Shown here piece after piece: positions 4,155 through 30,855 of a stretch of 32,000 bases of DNA. Location: the NCBI RefSeq assembly GCF_022701215.1, contig NZ_CP089976.1, positions 210,001 through 242,000 of the forward strand, written 5' to 3'. This DNA comes from Moraxella nasovis. GTDB taxonomy: Bacteria; Pseudomonadota; Gammaproteobacteria; Pseudomonadales; Moraxellaceae. Positions within the stretch are counted from its first letter, which is position 1. Every line of letters starts with the position of its first letter. The notes under the pieces are model-generated. The model was not told where the DNA came from and searched no databases. It was given only the letters and a program-made list of their open reading frames with translations. The position numbers and the translations under genes are program-made.

Positions 4155-4778
4155 ATGATTCTAATCATTGACAATTTTTGTAGCTTTACTTATAACATCG
4201 TGCAGTACTTTAGTGAGCTGCAACAAAATGTCATTGTCAAACAAAACGATCAAATCAGCCTTGATGACATCAAACAACTAAAACCTGATGCCATCGTGCT
4301 TGGTCCAGGTCCTTGTACACCGAACGAAGCAGGCATCAGCTTACCCATCTTAAAGCATATCAGCACGACAATCCCCACGCTTGGGGTGTGTCTTGGACAT
4401 CAGGCGATTGGGCAGGCTTTTGGGGGTCGTGTGGTGCAAGCCGATGAAATCATGCACGGCAGACTATCTAGTATTTACCATGATGGCTTGGGGGTATTTA
4501 CTGACTTGCCAGCACCCTTTGATGCCACACGCTACCACTCTTTAGTCATTGATAAGGCAAGCCTACCACAGTGCCTAAGCGTTACTGCTTGGACTGCGAA
4601 CCAAGATGGCTCAATCAAAGAAATTATGGGCGTTCGCCATCAATTTTTACCAATACAAGGGGTACAGTTTCACCCAGAATCCATTCTTAGTGAGCATGGC
4701 TATCAGATTTTTAATAACTTTTTGCACCAGCATGGACTTGCCAAGCTTGACAATCAACACTTACCCAAAGTAGCATGA
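4155..4778 (+). CDS. trpG: Anthranilate synthase component II / aminodeoxychorismate synthase glutamine amidotransferase subunit
   Basis: 207 aa. Class I glutamine amidotransferase motifs are present ([13 protein letters not shown] and GVQFHPES), and the gene is followed by trpD and trpC. Confidence 0.92.
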
Positions 4779-4808
4779 CAGACAACACTCATTATTTCAA
4801 GGCTTATC

Positions 4809-5891
4809 ATGAATACCGCCCACGACATCTTAAACTTATCTGACGATGAGATTAGTCAAATTCTCACCACCGCTTTAGATAAACTACTAAATAACATTGA
4901 TTTAGACAGCACACTCATGCGTCAAGTCATGCTTATCATCATGCAAGGACGCTGCCCTGATGCCTTAATGGGAGCGATTCTTGTCGCCTTACGCATTAAA
5001 GGCGAGACCATTGACGAGATTACCGCATGTGCATCTGTCATGATTGAGCTTGCTGATAAAATCACCCTGCCATCGCTTGATTATGTCGTTGATATCGTGG
5101 GGACCGGTGGAGATGGGGCAAACCTATTTAACATTTCAACAGCTTGTGCCTTCGTGGCAGCAGCAGCTGGGGTTACTATCGCTAAGCATGGCAATCGTGG
5201 CGTATCTACACGTTCAGGCTCATCGGATTTGCTTGAACAAGCAGGCATCGCACTAAACTTAGATAAGTCGCAGACCTTAGAATGCATTACCAAGCAAGGC
5301 ATTGGATTTTTATTTGCTCCAAATTACCACGCCGCTATGAAACACGCCATTGGTGTGCGTCGCCAACTAAAAGCACGTACCATCTTTAATATTTTAGGAC
5401 CGCTGACCAATCCTGCAGGTGTTAAAAATGCCGTCATCGGCACATTTAGCGAAGAATTATGCGAACCACTGGCTCACGTTTTTAGAAATCTTGGGGCAAA
5501 TCATGTCATCGTAGCAAGCTCACATGATGGGCTTGATGAGTTTAGCTTAGCGGAAGCGACATACGTTGCAGAGTTAAAAAACGGCAAGATAAGCACTTAT
5601 AATGTAAGCCCAGAAGACTTTGGTATCAACTCCCAAACTCTAAACGGACTAAAGGTGCATGATTCTTCTGAAAGTCTGACGCTTATCCGTGCTGCTTTAG
5701 CTGGCAAAAGCGAGGATCAGACCATCAAAAAAGCCCAAGATATTCTTGCCATCAATGCAGGTGCAGCTATTTATGTGTCAGGTCTAGCAGATAGCCACAC
5801 CCAAGGTGTACTTACGGCTCGCCGTGTGATTGAAAGTGGCAAGGCACTCGTTAAGCTTGACGAATACGCCAAATTCACCCAAAGCCTTTAA
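4809..5891 (+). CDS. trpD: Anthranilate phosphoribosyltransferase
   Basis: 360 aa with VDIVGTGGDGANLFNISTA and KHGNRGVSTRSGSSDLLE motifs typical of TrpD. It sits in trpG-D-C order. Confidence 0.95.
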   Translation: MNTAHDILNLSDDEISQILTTALDKLLNNIDLDSTLMRQVMLIIMQGRCPDALMGAILVALRIKGETIDEITACASVMIELADKITLPSLDYVVDIVGTGGDGANLFNISTACAFVAAAAGVTIAKHGNRGVSTRSGSSDLLEQAGIALNLDKSQTLECITKQGIGFLFAPNYHAAMKHAIGVRRQLKARTIFNILGPLTNPAGVKNAVIGTFSEELCEPLAHVFRNLGANHVIVASSHDGLDEFSLAEATYVAELKNGKISTYNVSPEDFGINSQTLNGLKVHDSSESLTLIRAALAGKSEDQTIKKAQDILAINAGAAIYVSGLADSHTQGVLTARRVIESGKALVKLDEYAKFTQSL

Positions 5892-26659: not shown

Positions 26660-27421
26660 TTAGTGTGTAGCTTCAGTGATTTGTGCTGACTGTTCGTCAA
26701 TGACCACTGATGGCGTGCTAATCGGTTCTACCTCTACACCCAAAGACTGTAATTTTAGGCTAAGTAGTGCACGCTCTTCTTGGCGATCACGCAAAGACTC
26801 CCAAGCAGCGGTATAGGCAGCTTTTGCATTCTCGATGTCATTTTTTGCCACATAAATATCGCCAAGCACTTCTTGTTTTGACGCCTCAAAGGCTTCTGGC
26901 AATGCTTTTTGCATCACTGCTTTTGCACCATCTGCATCACCCTTGGCAAGCAAAACTTGAGCAAGGCGTAAATCTGTAATCGCCATCAAGCCTGCATCAT
27001 CTAGCTTAATCGCTGCCGCTTGATTTAGTGAATCAGCAGCAGCTTGATAGTCTTCTTCATCACTTTGGTGGCGTGCTTTTAACATCAATGCCTGCCAAGC
27101 GTAAACACTATCGCCATGCTCTGCCACAAGCTTATCAATATCAGTATACAGCCGAGCCTTATCATCTGCCAATGCTTTTTTGGCGGTGTCGTCAAGATCA
27201 GGGTTTTGCTCGGCTAAAATAACCGCGTCATTTCGTTGACTGATTGACGCATAACTATCGGCTGCTACCACATCTACTTTGGCATAATGATTTTGATAGT
27301 ATTGCCACCCAAAAAAAGCCGCCAATACCAAAATAATCGCCCACAATATCTTGCTACCGTGCTGTTTTAAGGCGTTTAGTGCTTGTTGATTGTCTTGATT
27401 TTTATCTGCGTTTTGTGTCAT
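26660..27421 (-). CDS. yfgM: YfgM-family membrane-anchored TPR-like protein (ancillary SecYEG translocon subunit family)
   Basis: It has a single N-terminal TM segment (ILWAIILVLAAFFGWQYY) followed by an Ala-rich helical-repeat domain, and it sits in the conserved position between hisS and bamB. ATG 27421 (MTQNADKNQ), preceded by GAGAAG, is preferred over the 27478 start, which would overlap hisS by 47 nt. Confidence 0.8.
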   Translation of the reverse strand: MTQNADKNQDNQQALNALKQHGSKILWAIILVLAAFFGWQYYQNHYAKVDVVAADSYASISQRNDAVILAEQNPDLDDTAKKALADDKARLYTDIDKLVAEHGDSVYAWQALMLKARHQSDEEDYQAAADSLNQAAAIKLDDAGLMAITDLRLAQVLLAKGDADGAKAVMQKALPEAFEASKQEVLGDIYVAKNDIENAKAAYTAAWESLRDRQEERALLSLKLQSLGVEVEPISTPSVVIDEQSAQITEATH

Positions 27422-27431
27422 ATTCTTCTCT

Positions 27432-28715
27432 TTAAATTTTAAAATCAAAGGCGTCTTTTGACTGAGATGATTGCTCACCTGTTGCCATATCTTTTACACT
27501 TACCGTGTCGCCTGCCACTTCGTCAGCACCTATAATAACGGTGAATGCAGCTCCTGATTTGTCCGCTTTTTTCATTTGTGATTTTAATGAAGTTGCTGAA
27601 GCCATTTTTACTTTAAGGCTTGGGCGTGCGTGTCGTAATTGGTTGGCATACACGACAGCATGTAAATACTCATCTTCACTTGCCACCACGAACACATCAC
27701 AATCAGAAACATTCTTTAGCGGGGCAACTTCATCAATAAGCAACATCAATCGCTCCAACCCCATTGCAAAACCTACCGCAGGCTCAGATTGCTCAGGCTT
27801 ACCTTTGACAATACCTACCAAGCCATCATAACGCCCACCGCCACACACGGTTGCCTGCGAGCCTAGCTTATCTGTTACCCACTCAAAGACGGTTTTGTTA
27901 TAATAATCAAGCCCACGAACTAATTTTTCGTTAATTTCAAACTTAATACCAAGTGCCTTTAGATAGCTTTGAACTTGATTAAAGTGAGTACGACTCGCCT
28001 CGCCTAAAAAATCTGATAATTTTGGTGCACCAAGTAGTACCGCTTGAGTTTGCTCATCTTTACTATCCAAAATTCGTAAAGGATTTGTGGTTAATCGCCT
28101 TTGGCTATCGTCGTCTAGTTTATCAAAATGCGTGGATAAGTAATCCACCAAAGCCGTCTTATAAGCCAATCTTTCATCGGCTTCTCCAAGTGTATTTAAC
28201 TGCAAACAAACATGATCAGAAATGCCAAGACGCTGCCACATGGTATAAGTCAAAGCGATAAGCTCGCTGTCAGCGTCAGGCGACGGGCTACCAAAGCTTT
28301 CTACACCAAGCTGAGTAAACTGACGATAACGCCCTTTTTGCGGACGTTCATAACGAAACATCGCCCCCATGTACCAAAGCTTAGGCGTATCACCACGAGT
28401 TAGATTATGCTCCACCACTGCACGCACACACCCTGCTGTCCCTTCTGGACGTAAGGTAAAGCTAGCACTTTCGCCCTTTTCGCTGTTTTGGGAATTATGA
28501 TTGGCGACGCTAAACATCTCTTTTTCTACAATGTCGGTTGCTTCACCCACACCACGAGCGAACAGCTGTGTTTCTTCAACCAATGGCAGACGAATTTGAC
28601 TAAATCCATAGCCATCAAGCACTTGACTTAGTATATTTTCAACGTGTCGCCATTTTTTAGCATCGCTTGGTAAAATATCATTAAAGCCACGAATGGCGGT
28701 GATTTTACTCATCAT
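27432..28715 (-). CDS. hisS: Histidine--tRNA ligase
   Basis: 427 aa with class II aaRS motifs. The blocks [27 protein letters not shown] and GGGRYDGLV are diagnostic of HisRS. Confidence 0.96.
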
Positions 28716-28731
28716 TTACTCACTTGTTAAT

Positions 28732-29727
28732 TTATTTAAACTTTGTTAATTTACTTAAACATTGTGCCAATTGACCATCGGTCAAAATTTCATCAAATTC
28801 ATCTTTATAGCGATTGGGATTATTCACATCAAAGTCGGTCATCGTCTTTAAAAATCCTGCAAAATTTGGGCTTTTGTTGGCAAGTTCGCTGATGACCGAA
28901 TAATCCATATTTTCTTTAAATTTGGCAGGCGATACAATCTTGCTTTGATGAATATCTATCAGATTTAATTCAATAATACCAATACCAAAACTGATGCTTA
29001 ATTTTTGTAAGGCTTCTATAAATTGGCTGTCTGGCTTAATATTTACCGCCACTAAATATCCCTCATTCGCCCAACTAGAATTACTCACCGCCTGAAAAAA
29101 ACTTTCTTTATAATTACTAAAATTTAATTCTTTTTTAATTTCAAACGAAAAAACTTTGATGGGCAATTGGTCAAATTTGTTAATAAAATTTAACACACAG
29201 CTTTTTTGGTAATTAGCATATTCAAAACTCACCGCCACCATATCAGGATACAACCATCTATCTTCACCTTTTATCCCTTTTTGGCTTGTCTCATGGAAGA
29301 TGGTTTTTGAATACGCCATAAAGTAATCATCGTGCCTTAAAAAATAACTCAGCACTTGGTGTAAATCACGTTCATGAAAATAAGATTTTTGATTAAACTT
29401 TTTAGAATTTTCTAACTTAACAATTTCTTGAACTTCTTGATTTAACTCGTCATTGTTTTGATTTTTTAAAATATACTGCTTAGGCTTGGTATTGGGCATT
29501 TCTTGAAAATGCTTTTTGTCAGTATAAATAATTCTCATAAAAGTAATATTGGGGGTTTTACCAGAAAAACACCCTGTATTATCATCAAAAGTATTTAAAC
29601 GATATTGTAGTTTATTTTGGACAACAAATTCCCATAATTGACTTGGCGTAACAGGACGATTGACCATACTCATCGCCAATATCGCAAGTTCGGTAAAACT
29701 TAATTTATCGGTGTTTAAATTATCCAT
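28732..29727 (-). CDS. Hypothetical protein: N-terminal HARE-type winged helix-turn-helix plus C-terminal PD-(D/E)xK nuclease-fold core (candidate stand-alone DNA endonuclease)
   Basis: aa 8-88 (LSFTELAILAMSMVNRPVTPSQLWEFV...SGKTPNITFMRIIYTD...YILKN) fit the HARE-HTH pattern. aa 115-235 contain HERDLHQVL (E), WLYPDMVAV (D162), VFSFEIKKEL (E196-x-K198) and FFQAVSNSS (Q) in the order expected for a restriction-endonuclease fold. The ATG directly abuts the ispG stop (TAAATG). The gene is very AT-rich relative to its neighbours. Confidence 0.6.
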   Translation of the reverse strand: MDNLNTDKLSFTELAILAMSMVNRPVTPSQLWEFVVQNKLQYRLNTFDDNTGCFSGKTPNITFMRIIYTDKKHFQEMPNTKPKQYILKNQNNDELNQEVQEIVKLENSKKFNQKSYFHERDLHQVLSYFLRHDDYFMAYSKTIFHETSQKGIKGEDRWLYPDMVAVSFEYANYQKSCVLNFINKFDQLPIKVFSFEIKKELNFSNYKESFFQAVSNSSWANEGYLVAVNIKPDSQFIEALQKLSISFGIGIIELNLIDIHQSKIVSPAKFKENMDYSVISELANKSPNFAGFLKTMTDFDVNNPNRYKDEFDEILTDGQLAQCLSKLTKFK

Positions 29728-30855
29728 TTATCCCACTCTAATAATCTCTTTTGCCTTGGCAATCGCACGAGCTTCACCAAGCTCACGGGCTTTTTCACGC
29801 ACCATCTGCTCTATTTCATTGACAAGATTATTAGTGTCAATCAGATGGCTTTTTTGTCCCATTTTATACACCAAAGAATTAGGATTTGCCCCCACCACAC
29901 CGATGGTCGCCTCTTTGGCCTCACCCGGTCCATTGACCTTACAGCCGATGACCGATAAATTTAGTGGCTCTCTGATGTCTTCTAGTCTTGCTTCTAGTTC
30001 ATTCATCACTTTGATGACATCAAATTCTTGGCGACTACAACTAGGGCAAGCGATAAAATTCACGCCATTAGAGCGAATGCCCAATGATTTTAAAATATCA
30101 AAGCCGATTTTAATCTCTTCTTCTGGGGCGGCAGCGAGCGATATTCGCATGGTGTCGCCAATGCCATCAAGCAAAAGCCCACCCAAGGCAATCGCACTTT
30201 TGACCGTGCCTGTGCGATACACGCCAGCTTCTGTTACCCCCAAATGCAAGGGGTTGTCAATTTGGGCAGAGATGAGTCGATATGCGTCCAAAGTCAAAAA
30301 GACATTACTGGCTTTGACAGAGATTTTATAATTTTGAAAATCCAGTTTTTCTAAAATATCAATATGACGCATGGCAGATTCTAGCATTGCTTCGCCTGTT
30401 GGCTCGCCATATTTTTTTTGTAGATCTTTTTCTAGTGAGCCTGCGTTCACGCCAATGCGAATGGGGATATTGTGGTACTTGGCACAGGCGACCACTTCAC
30501 GCACTTTGGCGTCATTGCCAATATTGCCAGGATTGATACGCAAACAGTCCGCCCCTGCATCAGCTGCCGCCAAGGCGATTTTGTGGTCAAAATGAATGTC
30601 GGCGATGAGCGGAATATTCACCAGTTTTTTGATGTCAGCAAAAGCCTGCACGCTCTCCATCGTCGGTGTGGACACACGCATAAGATCCGCCCCTGCATCT
30701 ACGCAACGCTGTATTTGGGCGACAGTCGCTGCCACATCACAGGTATCTGTATTGGTCATACTTTGCACGCTGATGGGCGCATCACCACCGATGGCGACAG
30801 AGCCTACATGGATTTTGCGAGTAAGACGGCGTTTGATGGGACTGTGATTTGACAT
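29728..30855 (-). CDS. ispG: 4-hydroxy-3-methylbut-2-en-1-yl diphosphate synthase (flavodoxin)
   Basis: 375 aa. [28 protein letters not shown] and the Fe-S Cys motif [10 protein letters not shown]...[11 protein letters not shown] are IspG/GcpE signatures. Confidence 0.96.

Follow-up and report, generated by a model that had tools for sequence, protein, structure and literature searches.

An open reading frame (ORF) of 331 amino acids (aa) lies between ispG and hisS on the minus strand of a 32,000-nucleotide (nt) stretch of the Moraxella nasovis genome (contig NZ_CP089976.1, positions 210,001 to 242,000; hereafter the window). Judged by sequence similarity, the encoded protein is clearly a member of the HrgA family, also catalogued as COG2958 and formerly as DUF511. 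It consists of an N-terminal HARE-HTH domain, a disordered linker, a PD-(D/E)xK-type nuclease core and a helical tail, and its gene is a promoterless cassette between conserved essential genes. The explanation we favor, while holding it tentatively, is that this single-gene HrgA-family cassette encodes a type IV-like, modification-dependent nuclease and has spread as a minimal mobile element. A defensive role of this kind is suggested by the architecture of the protein, the absent cognate methylase, the horizontal, accessory behavior of the gene and the literature on HARE-HTH domains. The possible alternatives are, in falling order, a DNA repair nuclease, a selfish cassette, the restriction subunit of a system with an unlinked methylase, and a non-catalytic regulator.

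Profile searches with the 331-aa protein against Pfam, NCBIfam, PADLOC and PHROGs returned no useful match, and its exact database entry is a hypothetical protein of M. nasovis with no further annotation. Membership in the family is evident from pairwise comparison: BLASTP aligns the protein to Helicobacter pylori HrgA (P0289) with 43% identity over 272 aa (E 2e-71) and to HrgA from a Helicobacter heilmannii plasmid with 47% identity (E 8e-59), and the relatives found by tblastn against plasmids and by a second protein search are labelled 'HrgA protein' or 'COG2958 family protein'. The family is large, falling into 1,042 clusters when grouped at 50% identity and into more than 7,900 at 90%; we sampled it with 80 diverse representatives that are 27–53% identical to the window protein. 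The Pfam entry for DUF511 (PF04373) matches neither the window protein nor bona fide HrgA from Helicobacter and Vibrio, and the precomputed Pfam fields of the database entries are all blank, the model being apparently absent from the release used. Laganeckas et al. (2011) placed DUF511/HrgA in the PD-(D/E)xK superfamily with all three motifs and described its N-terminal domain as a winged helix resembling the N-terminal domain of the RNA polymerase delta subunit, leaving the function open; Steczkiewicz et al. (2012) listed DUF511/COG2958 as a PD-(D/E)xK family of unknown function. The same arrangement, an N-terminal winged helix followed by a C-terminal PD-(D/E)xK domain with all three motifs, is found in the Moraxella protein at a length of 331 aa, against the published ~310–320 aa. 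An earlier note on this DNA, made from the sequence alone, had read the domains in a way that agrees with the fold predicted in 2011, but it did not recognize the named family.

The N-terminal domain is a diverged HARE-HTH. On the window protein itself the HARE-HTH profile PF05066 yields no match even at E ≤ 10, which puts the domain below Pfam detection. The same profile matches the N-terminus of 61 of the 80 representatives (best E 1.2e-24), and one of these, P0142, carries the domain at residues 6–75 (48.5 bits, cut-off 25.9) and aligns to residues 6–315 of the query with an E-value of 9e-61. The assignment follows from these two observations: most relatives match the profile, and one of them is alignable from end to end. 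AlphaFold2 (AF2) models the domain with a predicted local distance difference test score (pLDDT) of ~90, and its best Foldseek matches in the PDB are forkhead-type winged helices (prob 0.99, E 0.13). In the linker that follows, residues 91–113 fall below pLDDT 50, and its length varies in the alignment. The HARE-type winged helix claimed in the earlier note is therefore upheld at the level of the family, while the PF05066 and nuclease-clan Pfam matches that it expected on the protein itself were both missing. HARE-HTH has been proposed as a reader of modified DNA, and for ASXL1 such reading has been shown in pull-downs. Variations on this layout occur among the relatives. In P0088 (419 aa, from a Logan contig) a minimal nucleotidyltransferase domain (PF18765 / PF01909), of the MNT type of HEPN-MNT toxin-antitoxin pairs, is fused N-terminally to the HARE-HTH nuclease, and the distant members P0144, P0147, P0179 and P0229 have two tandem HARE-HTH domains or an extra N-terminal extension before the nuclease core.

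In the nuclease core eleven residues, E119, H123, W158, P161, D162, E196, K198, F211, S215, N216 and G250, are invariant in the 80 representatives, and the same alignment retains Q212 and the SNSSWANEGYL block in at least 90% of its sequences. AF2 models the full protein with pLDDT 81, and the C-terminal domain alone with pLDDT 83 and a predicted template modelling score of 0.82. The predicted core is built of a helix (119–132), strands at 139–142, 163–168 and 190–201, a helix (206–216) and a strand (222–230), with an overall topology of H-E-E-E-H-E-H-E. Its alpha-beta-beta-beta-alpha-beta order is the canonical one, and in the model D162 heads strand 2 and E196-x-K198 lies in strand 3. The ordered E, PD, ExK and Q motifs pointed out in the earlier note are borne out by the alignment, being invariant or nearly so across the family and falling on a nuclease-type core in the AF2 model. 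The predicted helical extension behind the core is also conserved within the family, at P267, A268, Y276, E281-L282-A283 and F311-D312. We rejected a homing endonuclease as an alternative identity: no LAGLIDADG, GIY-YIG or HNH signal was found, and a match to a PDB sequence at E 0.45 was dismissed as weak.

The PD-(D/E)xK assignment is well supported by the motifs, the predicted topology and the literature, and more weakly by the fold search, in which the only significant structural matches were MmcB-like DNA repair proteins in the BFVD database (E 4e-4 with prob 1.0, and E 4e-3). These matches agree with the published COMA match of DUF511 to PDB 3dnx, the best profile match reported by Laganeckas et al. 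(2011), and they point to the first alternative: a housekeeping, MmcB-like nuclease of DNA repair or recombination, recruited in some lineages into a constitutive operon and acting on damaged or branched host DNA. A purely structural use of the fold can also be imagined. The protein could be a non-catalytic regulator that binds DNA or RNA polymerase, with HARE-HTH serving as in the polymerase delta subunit and the nuclease-like fold as a binding module. The Prokaryotic Genome Annotation Pipeline labels relatives 'HTH domain-containing protein' with transcription Gene Ontology terms, and the closest structure cited for the DUF511 N-terminal domain is that of the delta subunit (Laganeckas et al. 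2011). We regard such a regulator as highly improbable, however, as the full acidic and lysine catalytic set is invariant family-wide, which is unexpected for an inactivated fold.

Table 1. Features of the HrgA-family gene and its junctions in the M. nasovis window (positions are those of the window)
Feature	Position	Strand	Basis
Whole gene, 331-aa HrgA/COG2958-family protein (M. nasovis LU293_01180)	28732..29727	-	ORF list, exact database match
HARE-HTH (winged helix), aa 8-88, including the GKTP block at aa 56-59	29464..29706	-	family-level PF05066 matches, AF2
Variable low-complexity linker, aa 89-115	29383..29463	-	pLDDT, alignment
PD-(D/E)xK-type nuclease core, aa 116-266	28930..29382	-	motif conservation, AF2, literature
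Codons of E119; D162; E196; K198; Q212	29371-29373; 29242-29244; 29140-29142; 29134-29136; 29092-29094	-	
C-terminal helical extension, aa 267-331	28735..28929	-	AF2 helices 276-329
TAAATG, junction of ispG stop and gene start, zero spacer	29725..29730	-	coding-strand sequence
16-nt spacer with hisS ribosome-binding region	28716..28731	-	sequence
ispG (GcpE), conserved upstream flank	29728..30855	-	Pfam GcpE on M. catarrhalis orthologue
hisS, conserved downstream flank	27432..28715	-	Pfam tRNA-synt_His on orthologue

The gene is fitted tightly between its neighbors (Table 1). Its ATG start codon directly follows the ispG stop, and only 16 nt, ATTAACAAGTGAGTAA, separate its own stop from the hisS ATG. 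The position of the ORF, the TAAATG junction and the 16-nt gap are all as the earlier note gave them, and its residue numbers (G56-K57-T58-P59, E119, P161-D162, E196, K198 and Q212) are likewise correct. No terminator-like site was found on the coding strand between ispG, the ORF and hisS, which makes co-transcription of the three genes the natural reading; with spacers of 0 and 16 nt we consider it likely, as had been claimed. Every Moraxella copy starts either in overlap with the ispG stop or at most 6 nt away from it (ATGA, TGATG, TAAATG, or a separation of 4–6 nt), and from the TAAATG junction we infer translational coupling to ispG. The insert amounts to the ORF and 16 nt, with no mobility genes or terminal repeats of its own, and therefore leaves no room for a promoter, terminal repeats or recombinase genes.

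To place the insertion in context, we surveyed the ispG–hisS junction in 80 genomes of Moraxellaceae and other gammaproteobacteria that encode an IspG relative. The gap between the two genes is 6–209 nt in ~66 of the 80 genomes, and the exceptions hold an HrgA-family gene, other cargo or an insertion sequence (IS) element. The junction is thus normally tight, in line with the adjacency asserted in the earlier note, and an extra gene there is a real departure. HrgA-family genes occupy it in M. nasovis, M. catarrhalis, M. canis, M. marmotae, M. caviae and three Moraxella metagenome-assembled genomes (MAGs). Nothing is inserted in M. porci, Moraxella sp. TY6 and two MAGs; IspG is 85–91% identical across Moraxella, empty sites occur in species at 89–91% IspG identity, and the closest relative by IspG (a MAG, 91% identity) has an empty site with a 37-nt spacer. 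All sampled Psychrobacter and Acinetobacter genomes also have an empty site, with the exception of Psychrobacter UBA5136. The comparison of related genomes that had been proposed as a check therefore finds the gene present, absent or replaced between Moraxella species.

The ispG–hisS junction is a general insertion hot spot in Moraxellaceae. In M. oblonga (L023 4626-6998) three lipoprotein-like ORFs are found in place of the HrgA-family gene; M. boevrei (L029 4970-7716) has an IS1 InsA fragment, YceI, a family-3 solute-binding protein and one unknown ORF; and the junction of Psychrobacter UBA5136 (L052 4748-5674) contains an IS30-type transposase. Two further records from the survey call for caution. 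In Psychrobacter sp. WY6 (CP049902.1, L071 4421-5242) the ispG match breaks off at residue 307, and 821 nt further on the hisS match sets in at residue 198; a deletion, a masked stretch or an assembly problem at the junction is possible. The IspG encoded in the record BMPS01000001.1 (labelled Streptomyces cinereus JCM 3040) shares 82% identity with that of Moraxella; the record also has a Moraxellaceae-like ispG-hisS arrangement and is likely contaminated or mislabelled. Downstream of hisS in the window, the mechanically called yfgM ORF (26660-27478, minus strand) begins at a GTG and shares 47 nt with the 3' end of hisS; an internal ATG at codon 20 (MTQNADK...) is the more likely start.

Homologues are also found at other genomic sites in distant hosts. 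The pheS–pheT junction holds one in Neisseria polysaccharea, in one Neisseria MAG and in Alysiella filiformis; in meningococci the junction holds a type II restriction-modification system and is a textbook minimal mobile element site (Saunders & Snyder 2002; Snyder et al. 2007). In Alysiella and Neisseria the gene has DNA-uptake-sequence repeats on both sides. In A. filiformis (CP059564.1, L004 4657-6008) a 96-aa ORF without a Pfam match (4678-4968) lies between pheS and the HrgA-like gene, and both ORFs are bracketed by the uptake-sequence-like inverted repeats TTCAGGCAGCCTGAA / TTCAGGCTGCCTGAA at 4664, 4972 and 5959. A high-GC contig has a homologue upstream of hrpA, a Vibrio conjugative plasmid has one beside hsdR, and on a Clostridium megaplasmid the homologue adjoins two DNA methyltransferases and a restriction endonuclease (REase). 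In H. pylori CP122955.1 (L184 2403-4945) a 'COG2958 family protein' gene overlaps the end of a two-cassette ABC-F-type ATPase gene by 4 nt, with HaeIII-like REase fragments and a C5 methylase, or type I hsdS/hsdR, at most 3 kb away. This site differs from the hpyIII locus of hrgA, so the family may occupy two sites in H. pylori. Among viruses, tblastn gave no match in 50,697 records of sequenced phages. IMG/VR contains 67 family members on predicted viral contigs, ~24 of which (about a third, by hand count) lie no more than 1.5 kb from a contig end, a position that suggests cargo at prophage borders or over-extended prophage calls.

The alleles at these sites do not follow the taxonomy of their hosts. 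In a neighbor-joining tree the Neisseriaceae pheS–pheT alleles fall among the Moraxella ispG–hisS alleles, at 60–70% identity all round, and each of the two sites also has a second, deeply diverged allele. Taken together, the patchy occupation of sites, the discordance between gene tree and taxonomy and the low G+C of the gene indicate that the cassette has been exchanged horizontally, even between classes. The discordant tree and the flanking uptake sequences are consistent with acquisition by homologous recombination after natural transformation. Comparison between species reveals a variable cassette between conserved flanks without mobility genes or repeats of its own, which are the hallmarks of a minimal mobile element. 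One homologue, P0098, looks mosaic: its N-terminal half resembles the P0102 group, whereas the stretch between about residue 220 and the C-terminus hardly differs from the allele of Neisseria yangbaofengii, a pattern that suggests recombination inside the gene.

Base composition sets the gene apart from its surroundings. With a G+C content of 0.311, against 0.468 in ispG and 0.433 in hisS, it is the lowest among the 29 ORFs of the window (z = -4.0), and the compositional outlier noticed earlier is thereby confirmed; homologues lie 10–16 points under their host in every genome examined. The deficit resides mainly in codon positions 1 and 2 (z -3.1 and -2.8), and G+C at the third position is mildly low (0.296, z -1.9). 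The low G+C is therefore mostly a matter of amino-acid composition, the protein being rich in Lys, Asn, Phe, Ile and Tyr. Between M. catarrhalis and M. canis the synonymous divergence (dS) is 0.58 for the gene, 0.75 for ispG and 0.73 for hisS. Values this close imply that gene and flanks have diverged in step and that the gene did not arrive recently in this lineage. Recent acquisition as the sole cause of the low G+C was rejected on both grounds, the mildly low third position and a dS equal to that of the flanks. The horizontal acquisition argued for in the earlier note stands as far as movement is concerned, given the patchy distribution and the mixed gene tree, but not as a recent event, the gene being an old resident in M. 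catarrhalis and M. canis.

The same species pair reveals the selection acting on the protein. The ratio of non-synonymous to synonymous divergence (omega) is 0.20 for the gene and 0.03–0.05 for the flanks; by domain, it reaches 0.43 in the HARE-HTH half and 0.10 in the nuclease half. The protein is under purifying selection, and its DNA-reading module evolves faster, by a factor of ~4. These values bear on two of the alternatives. The repair nuclease would agree with the long residence, the purifying selection and the tight translational coupling in Moraxella, and with the ordinary genes that make up most neighborhoods. We nevertheless consider it unlikely: the gene is patchy even in the closest relatives, with empty sites at 89–91% IspG identity, its tree records inter-class transfer, it is carried on plasmids and at prophage edges, and its DNA-reading domain evolves fast. 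Patchiness, transfer, plasmid carriage and a fast reader domain are traits of accessory or defence genes, not of core repair.

The second of these alternatives is a selfish cassette of little or no benefit to the host, spread by transformation through highly conserved flanks. Such a cassette would persist because, lacking a promoter and being translationally coupled between essential genes, it could not be deleted imprecisely without harm to hisS expression. Its locations are suggestive in this respect. Three competent lineages have the cassette within or beside operons that are essential or conserved (ispG–hisS, pheS–pheT, and after ABC-F in H. pylori); according to PMC6563999, a strain-unique hrgA of Acinetobacter baumannii AB031 adjoins glyS, the gene of the glycyl-tRNA synthetase beta subunit, which would make a third site of the family beside an aminoacyl-tRNA synthetase gene in a competent lineage. 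Uptake-sequence repeats around the gene in Alysiella and Neisseria and unrelated cargo at the Moraxella ispG–hisS junction would fit as well. Selfish persistence appears distinctly unlikely all the same, because an omega of 0.20 overall and 0.10 in the catalytic domain, together with active-site residues that do not vary in over 1,000 clusters at 50% identity, indicates selection on the activity of the protein and not mere persistence of its DNA. Clean empty sites exist too, so loss is possible.

No conserved partner gene accompanies the family. Across 80 metagenome loci, 90 of 124 immediate neighbors are unrelated to any other, and the small ORFs that precede the gene in Alysiella and in the high-GC contig (L092), which were considered as a candidate partner, show no relationship to one another. 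In Moraxella and Neisseriaceae the gene has no DNA methyltransferase as its neighbor. A Pfam census of 106 neighbors at 71 non-redundant loci found AAA_21 four times, AAA_15 twice, D12 and N6/N4 DNA methyltransferases four times, DpnII, the FokI cleavage domain, integrases twice, and Fic. No tRNA-synthetase family is among the top Pfam families of these neighbors. A family-wide association with aminoacyl-tRNA synthetases, to which hisS, pheS–pheT and the published glyS case had pointed, was accordingly rejected, and adjacency to their genes is confined to a few competent lineages.

These neighborhoods also bear on the view that the protein serves as restriction subunit in a restriction-modification system with an unlinked methyltransferase gene, or is a replacement REase as suggested for hrgA beside hpyIIIM. 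In H. pylori, hrgA stands in the place of hpyIIIR next to hpyIIIM, and D12-class and N6/N4 methyltransferases and a DpnII REase occur near some relatives. The missing adjacent methyltransferase in Moraxella and Neisseriaceae and the want of a conserved partner across the 80 loci make this view improbable. Moreover, Laganeckas et al. (2011) described HpyIIIM as inactive in a number of hrgA strains and reported no conserved methylase neighbor. These points speak against a type II role and neither favor nor disfavor type IV.

The type IV-like reading that we favor can be cast as a mechanism. The gene would be translated from the mRNA of the rlmN-pilW-ispG-hisS operon by coupling to ispG, which would supply a low constitutive level of a Mg2+-dependent DNA endonuclease, and the fast-evolving HARE-HTH domain would select the target DNA. 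With no linked methyltransferase and no conserved partner, host DNA must be an intrinsic non-substrate, most likely through dependence of the enzyme on a base modification or a DNA form that the host lacks. Phage and other incoming DNA would thus be restricted in a type IV-like, modification-dependent manner. The cassette itself would spread among naturally transformable bacteria by homologous recombination in the conserved flanks; for H. pylori, the literature describes replacement of a restriction gene by hrgA through homologous recombination.

Several observations weigh against this reading. Defence and mobile genes are only a minority of the 106 neighbors, and most neighborhoods are not defence islands. 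PADLOC-DB v2.0.0, one of the checks that the earlier note had recommended, has no match for the window protein; 2 of the 80 relatives match PADLOC candidate families (one PDC-S14, one PDC-S57), and a repeated scan of the ten longest relatives gave no match. Hosts such as Helicobacter and Neisseria have heavily methylated genomes, a constraint on any nuclease that depends on modification. In the M. catarrhalis/M. canis lineage the gene is an old and stable resident, which fits a housekeeping role no less than a defensive one. The structural check suggested in the earlier note returned the canonical core topology and the MmcB-like matches in BFVD but no significant match to any solved REase in the PDB, AspBHI being among the weak matches, and profile searches against PDB sequences with close and diverse alignments gave nothing significant. 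The Mrr-like character proposed there finds no backing either: neither Mrr_cat (PF04471) nor any other known type IV domain was detected in Pfam or NCBIfam. Later papers still describe hrgA as a gene of unknown function.

The protein is not of a new kind, the HrgA family having been named since 2002 and its nuclease predicted since 2011. Modestly new are the location of a minimal mobile element at ispG–hisS in Moraxella, its translational coupling, and its exchange with the pheS–pheT site of Neisseriaceae. They extend the idea of minimal mobile elements from Neisseria to a new site and genus, with the same cassette passing between Gamma- and Betaproteobacteria. A more general picture is conceivable but doubtful: HrgA proteins may form a widespread, partner-less family of modification-sensing restriction nucleases absent from current defence catalogues, which in constitutively competent mucosal bacteria (Moraxella, Neisseriaceae, Helicobacter, possibly Acinetobacter) would take the form of promoterless, coupled cassettes in essential translation-related operons (hisS, pheST, glyS, ABC-F). 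Such cassettes would be hard to lose and would be exchanged across classes by transformation through ultra-conserved flanks. In Moraxella and Neisseria the loci are clean and amenable to genetic work, and M. catarrhalis has the gene at the same site. Restriction of foreign or modified DNA by a solitary HARE-HTH nuclease would, if true, be the first functional read-out for a bacterial HARE-HTH domain; if the protein is a repair enzyme or an inert hitch-hiker, the interest is local only.

Known systems resemble the M. nasovis gene in different parts. The N-terminal domain of the HrgA family matches the same profile (PF05066) as the HARE-HTH of the RNA polymerase delta subunit and of ASXL proteins, in which the domain is not joined to a nuclease. 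MmcB-like proteins (DUF1052, the family of PDB 3dnx) give the C-terminal domain its best significant structural matches, but have no detectable sequence similarity to it and lack HARE-HTH. Type IV enzymes, such as the winged-helix fusions of the DpnI/HhiV4I-like kind, Mrr and AspBHI, share the solitary layout of reader and nuclease on a single polypeptide; the reader here is HARE-HTH and not a DpnI-type winged helix, SRA or Mrr-N, and Mrr_cat is lacking. H. pylori HrgA is homologous over most of the protein, belongs to the same length class (~310–330 aa) and has the same predicted winged helix and PD-(D/E)xK domain. It is also an alternative cassette between conserved flanks in a naturally competent host, exchangeable by homologous recombination. 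The Moraxella gene differs in its place at ispG–hisS, away from any methyltransferase, and in its tight translational coupling to an essential operon, and the N-terminal domain of Helicobacter HrgA is too diverged for BLASTP to align it with that of the M. nasovis protein. Finally, the minimal mobile elements of Neisseria are whole-gene cassettes without mobility genes, inserted between two conserved genes and varying in content between strains and species. In Moraxella the site is ispG–hisS, the polymorphism lies between species and not strains, and spread by recombination is what we infer; homologues of the M. nasovis gene occupy the archetypal pheS–pheT site itself.

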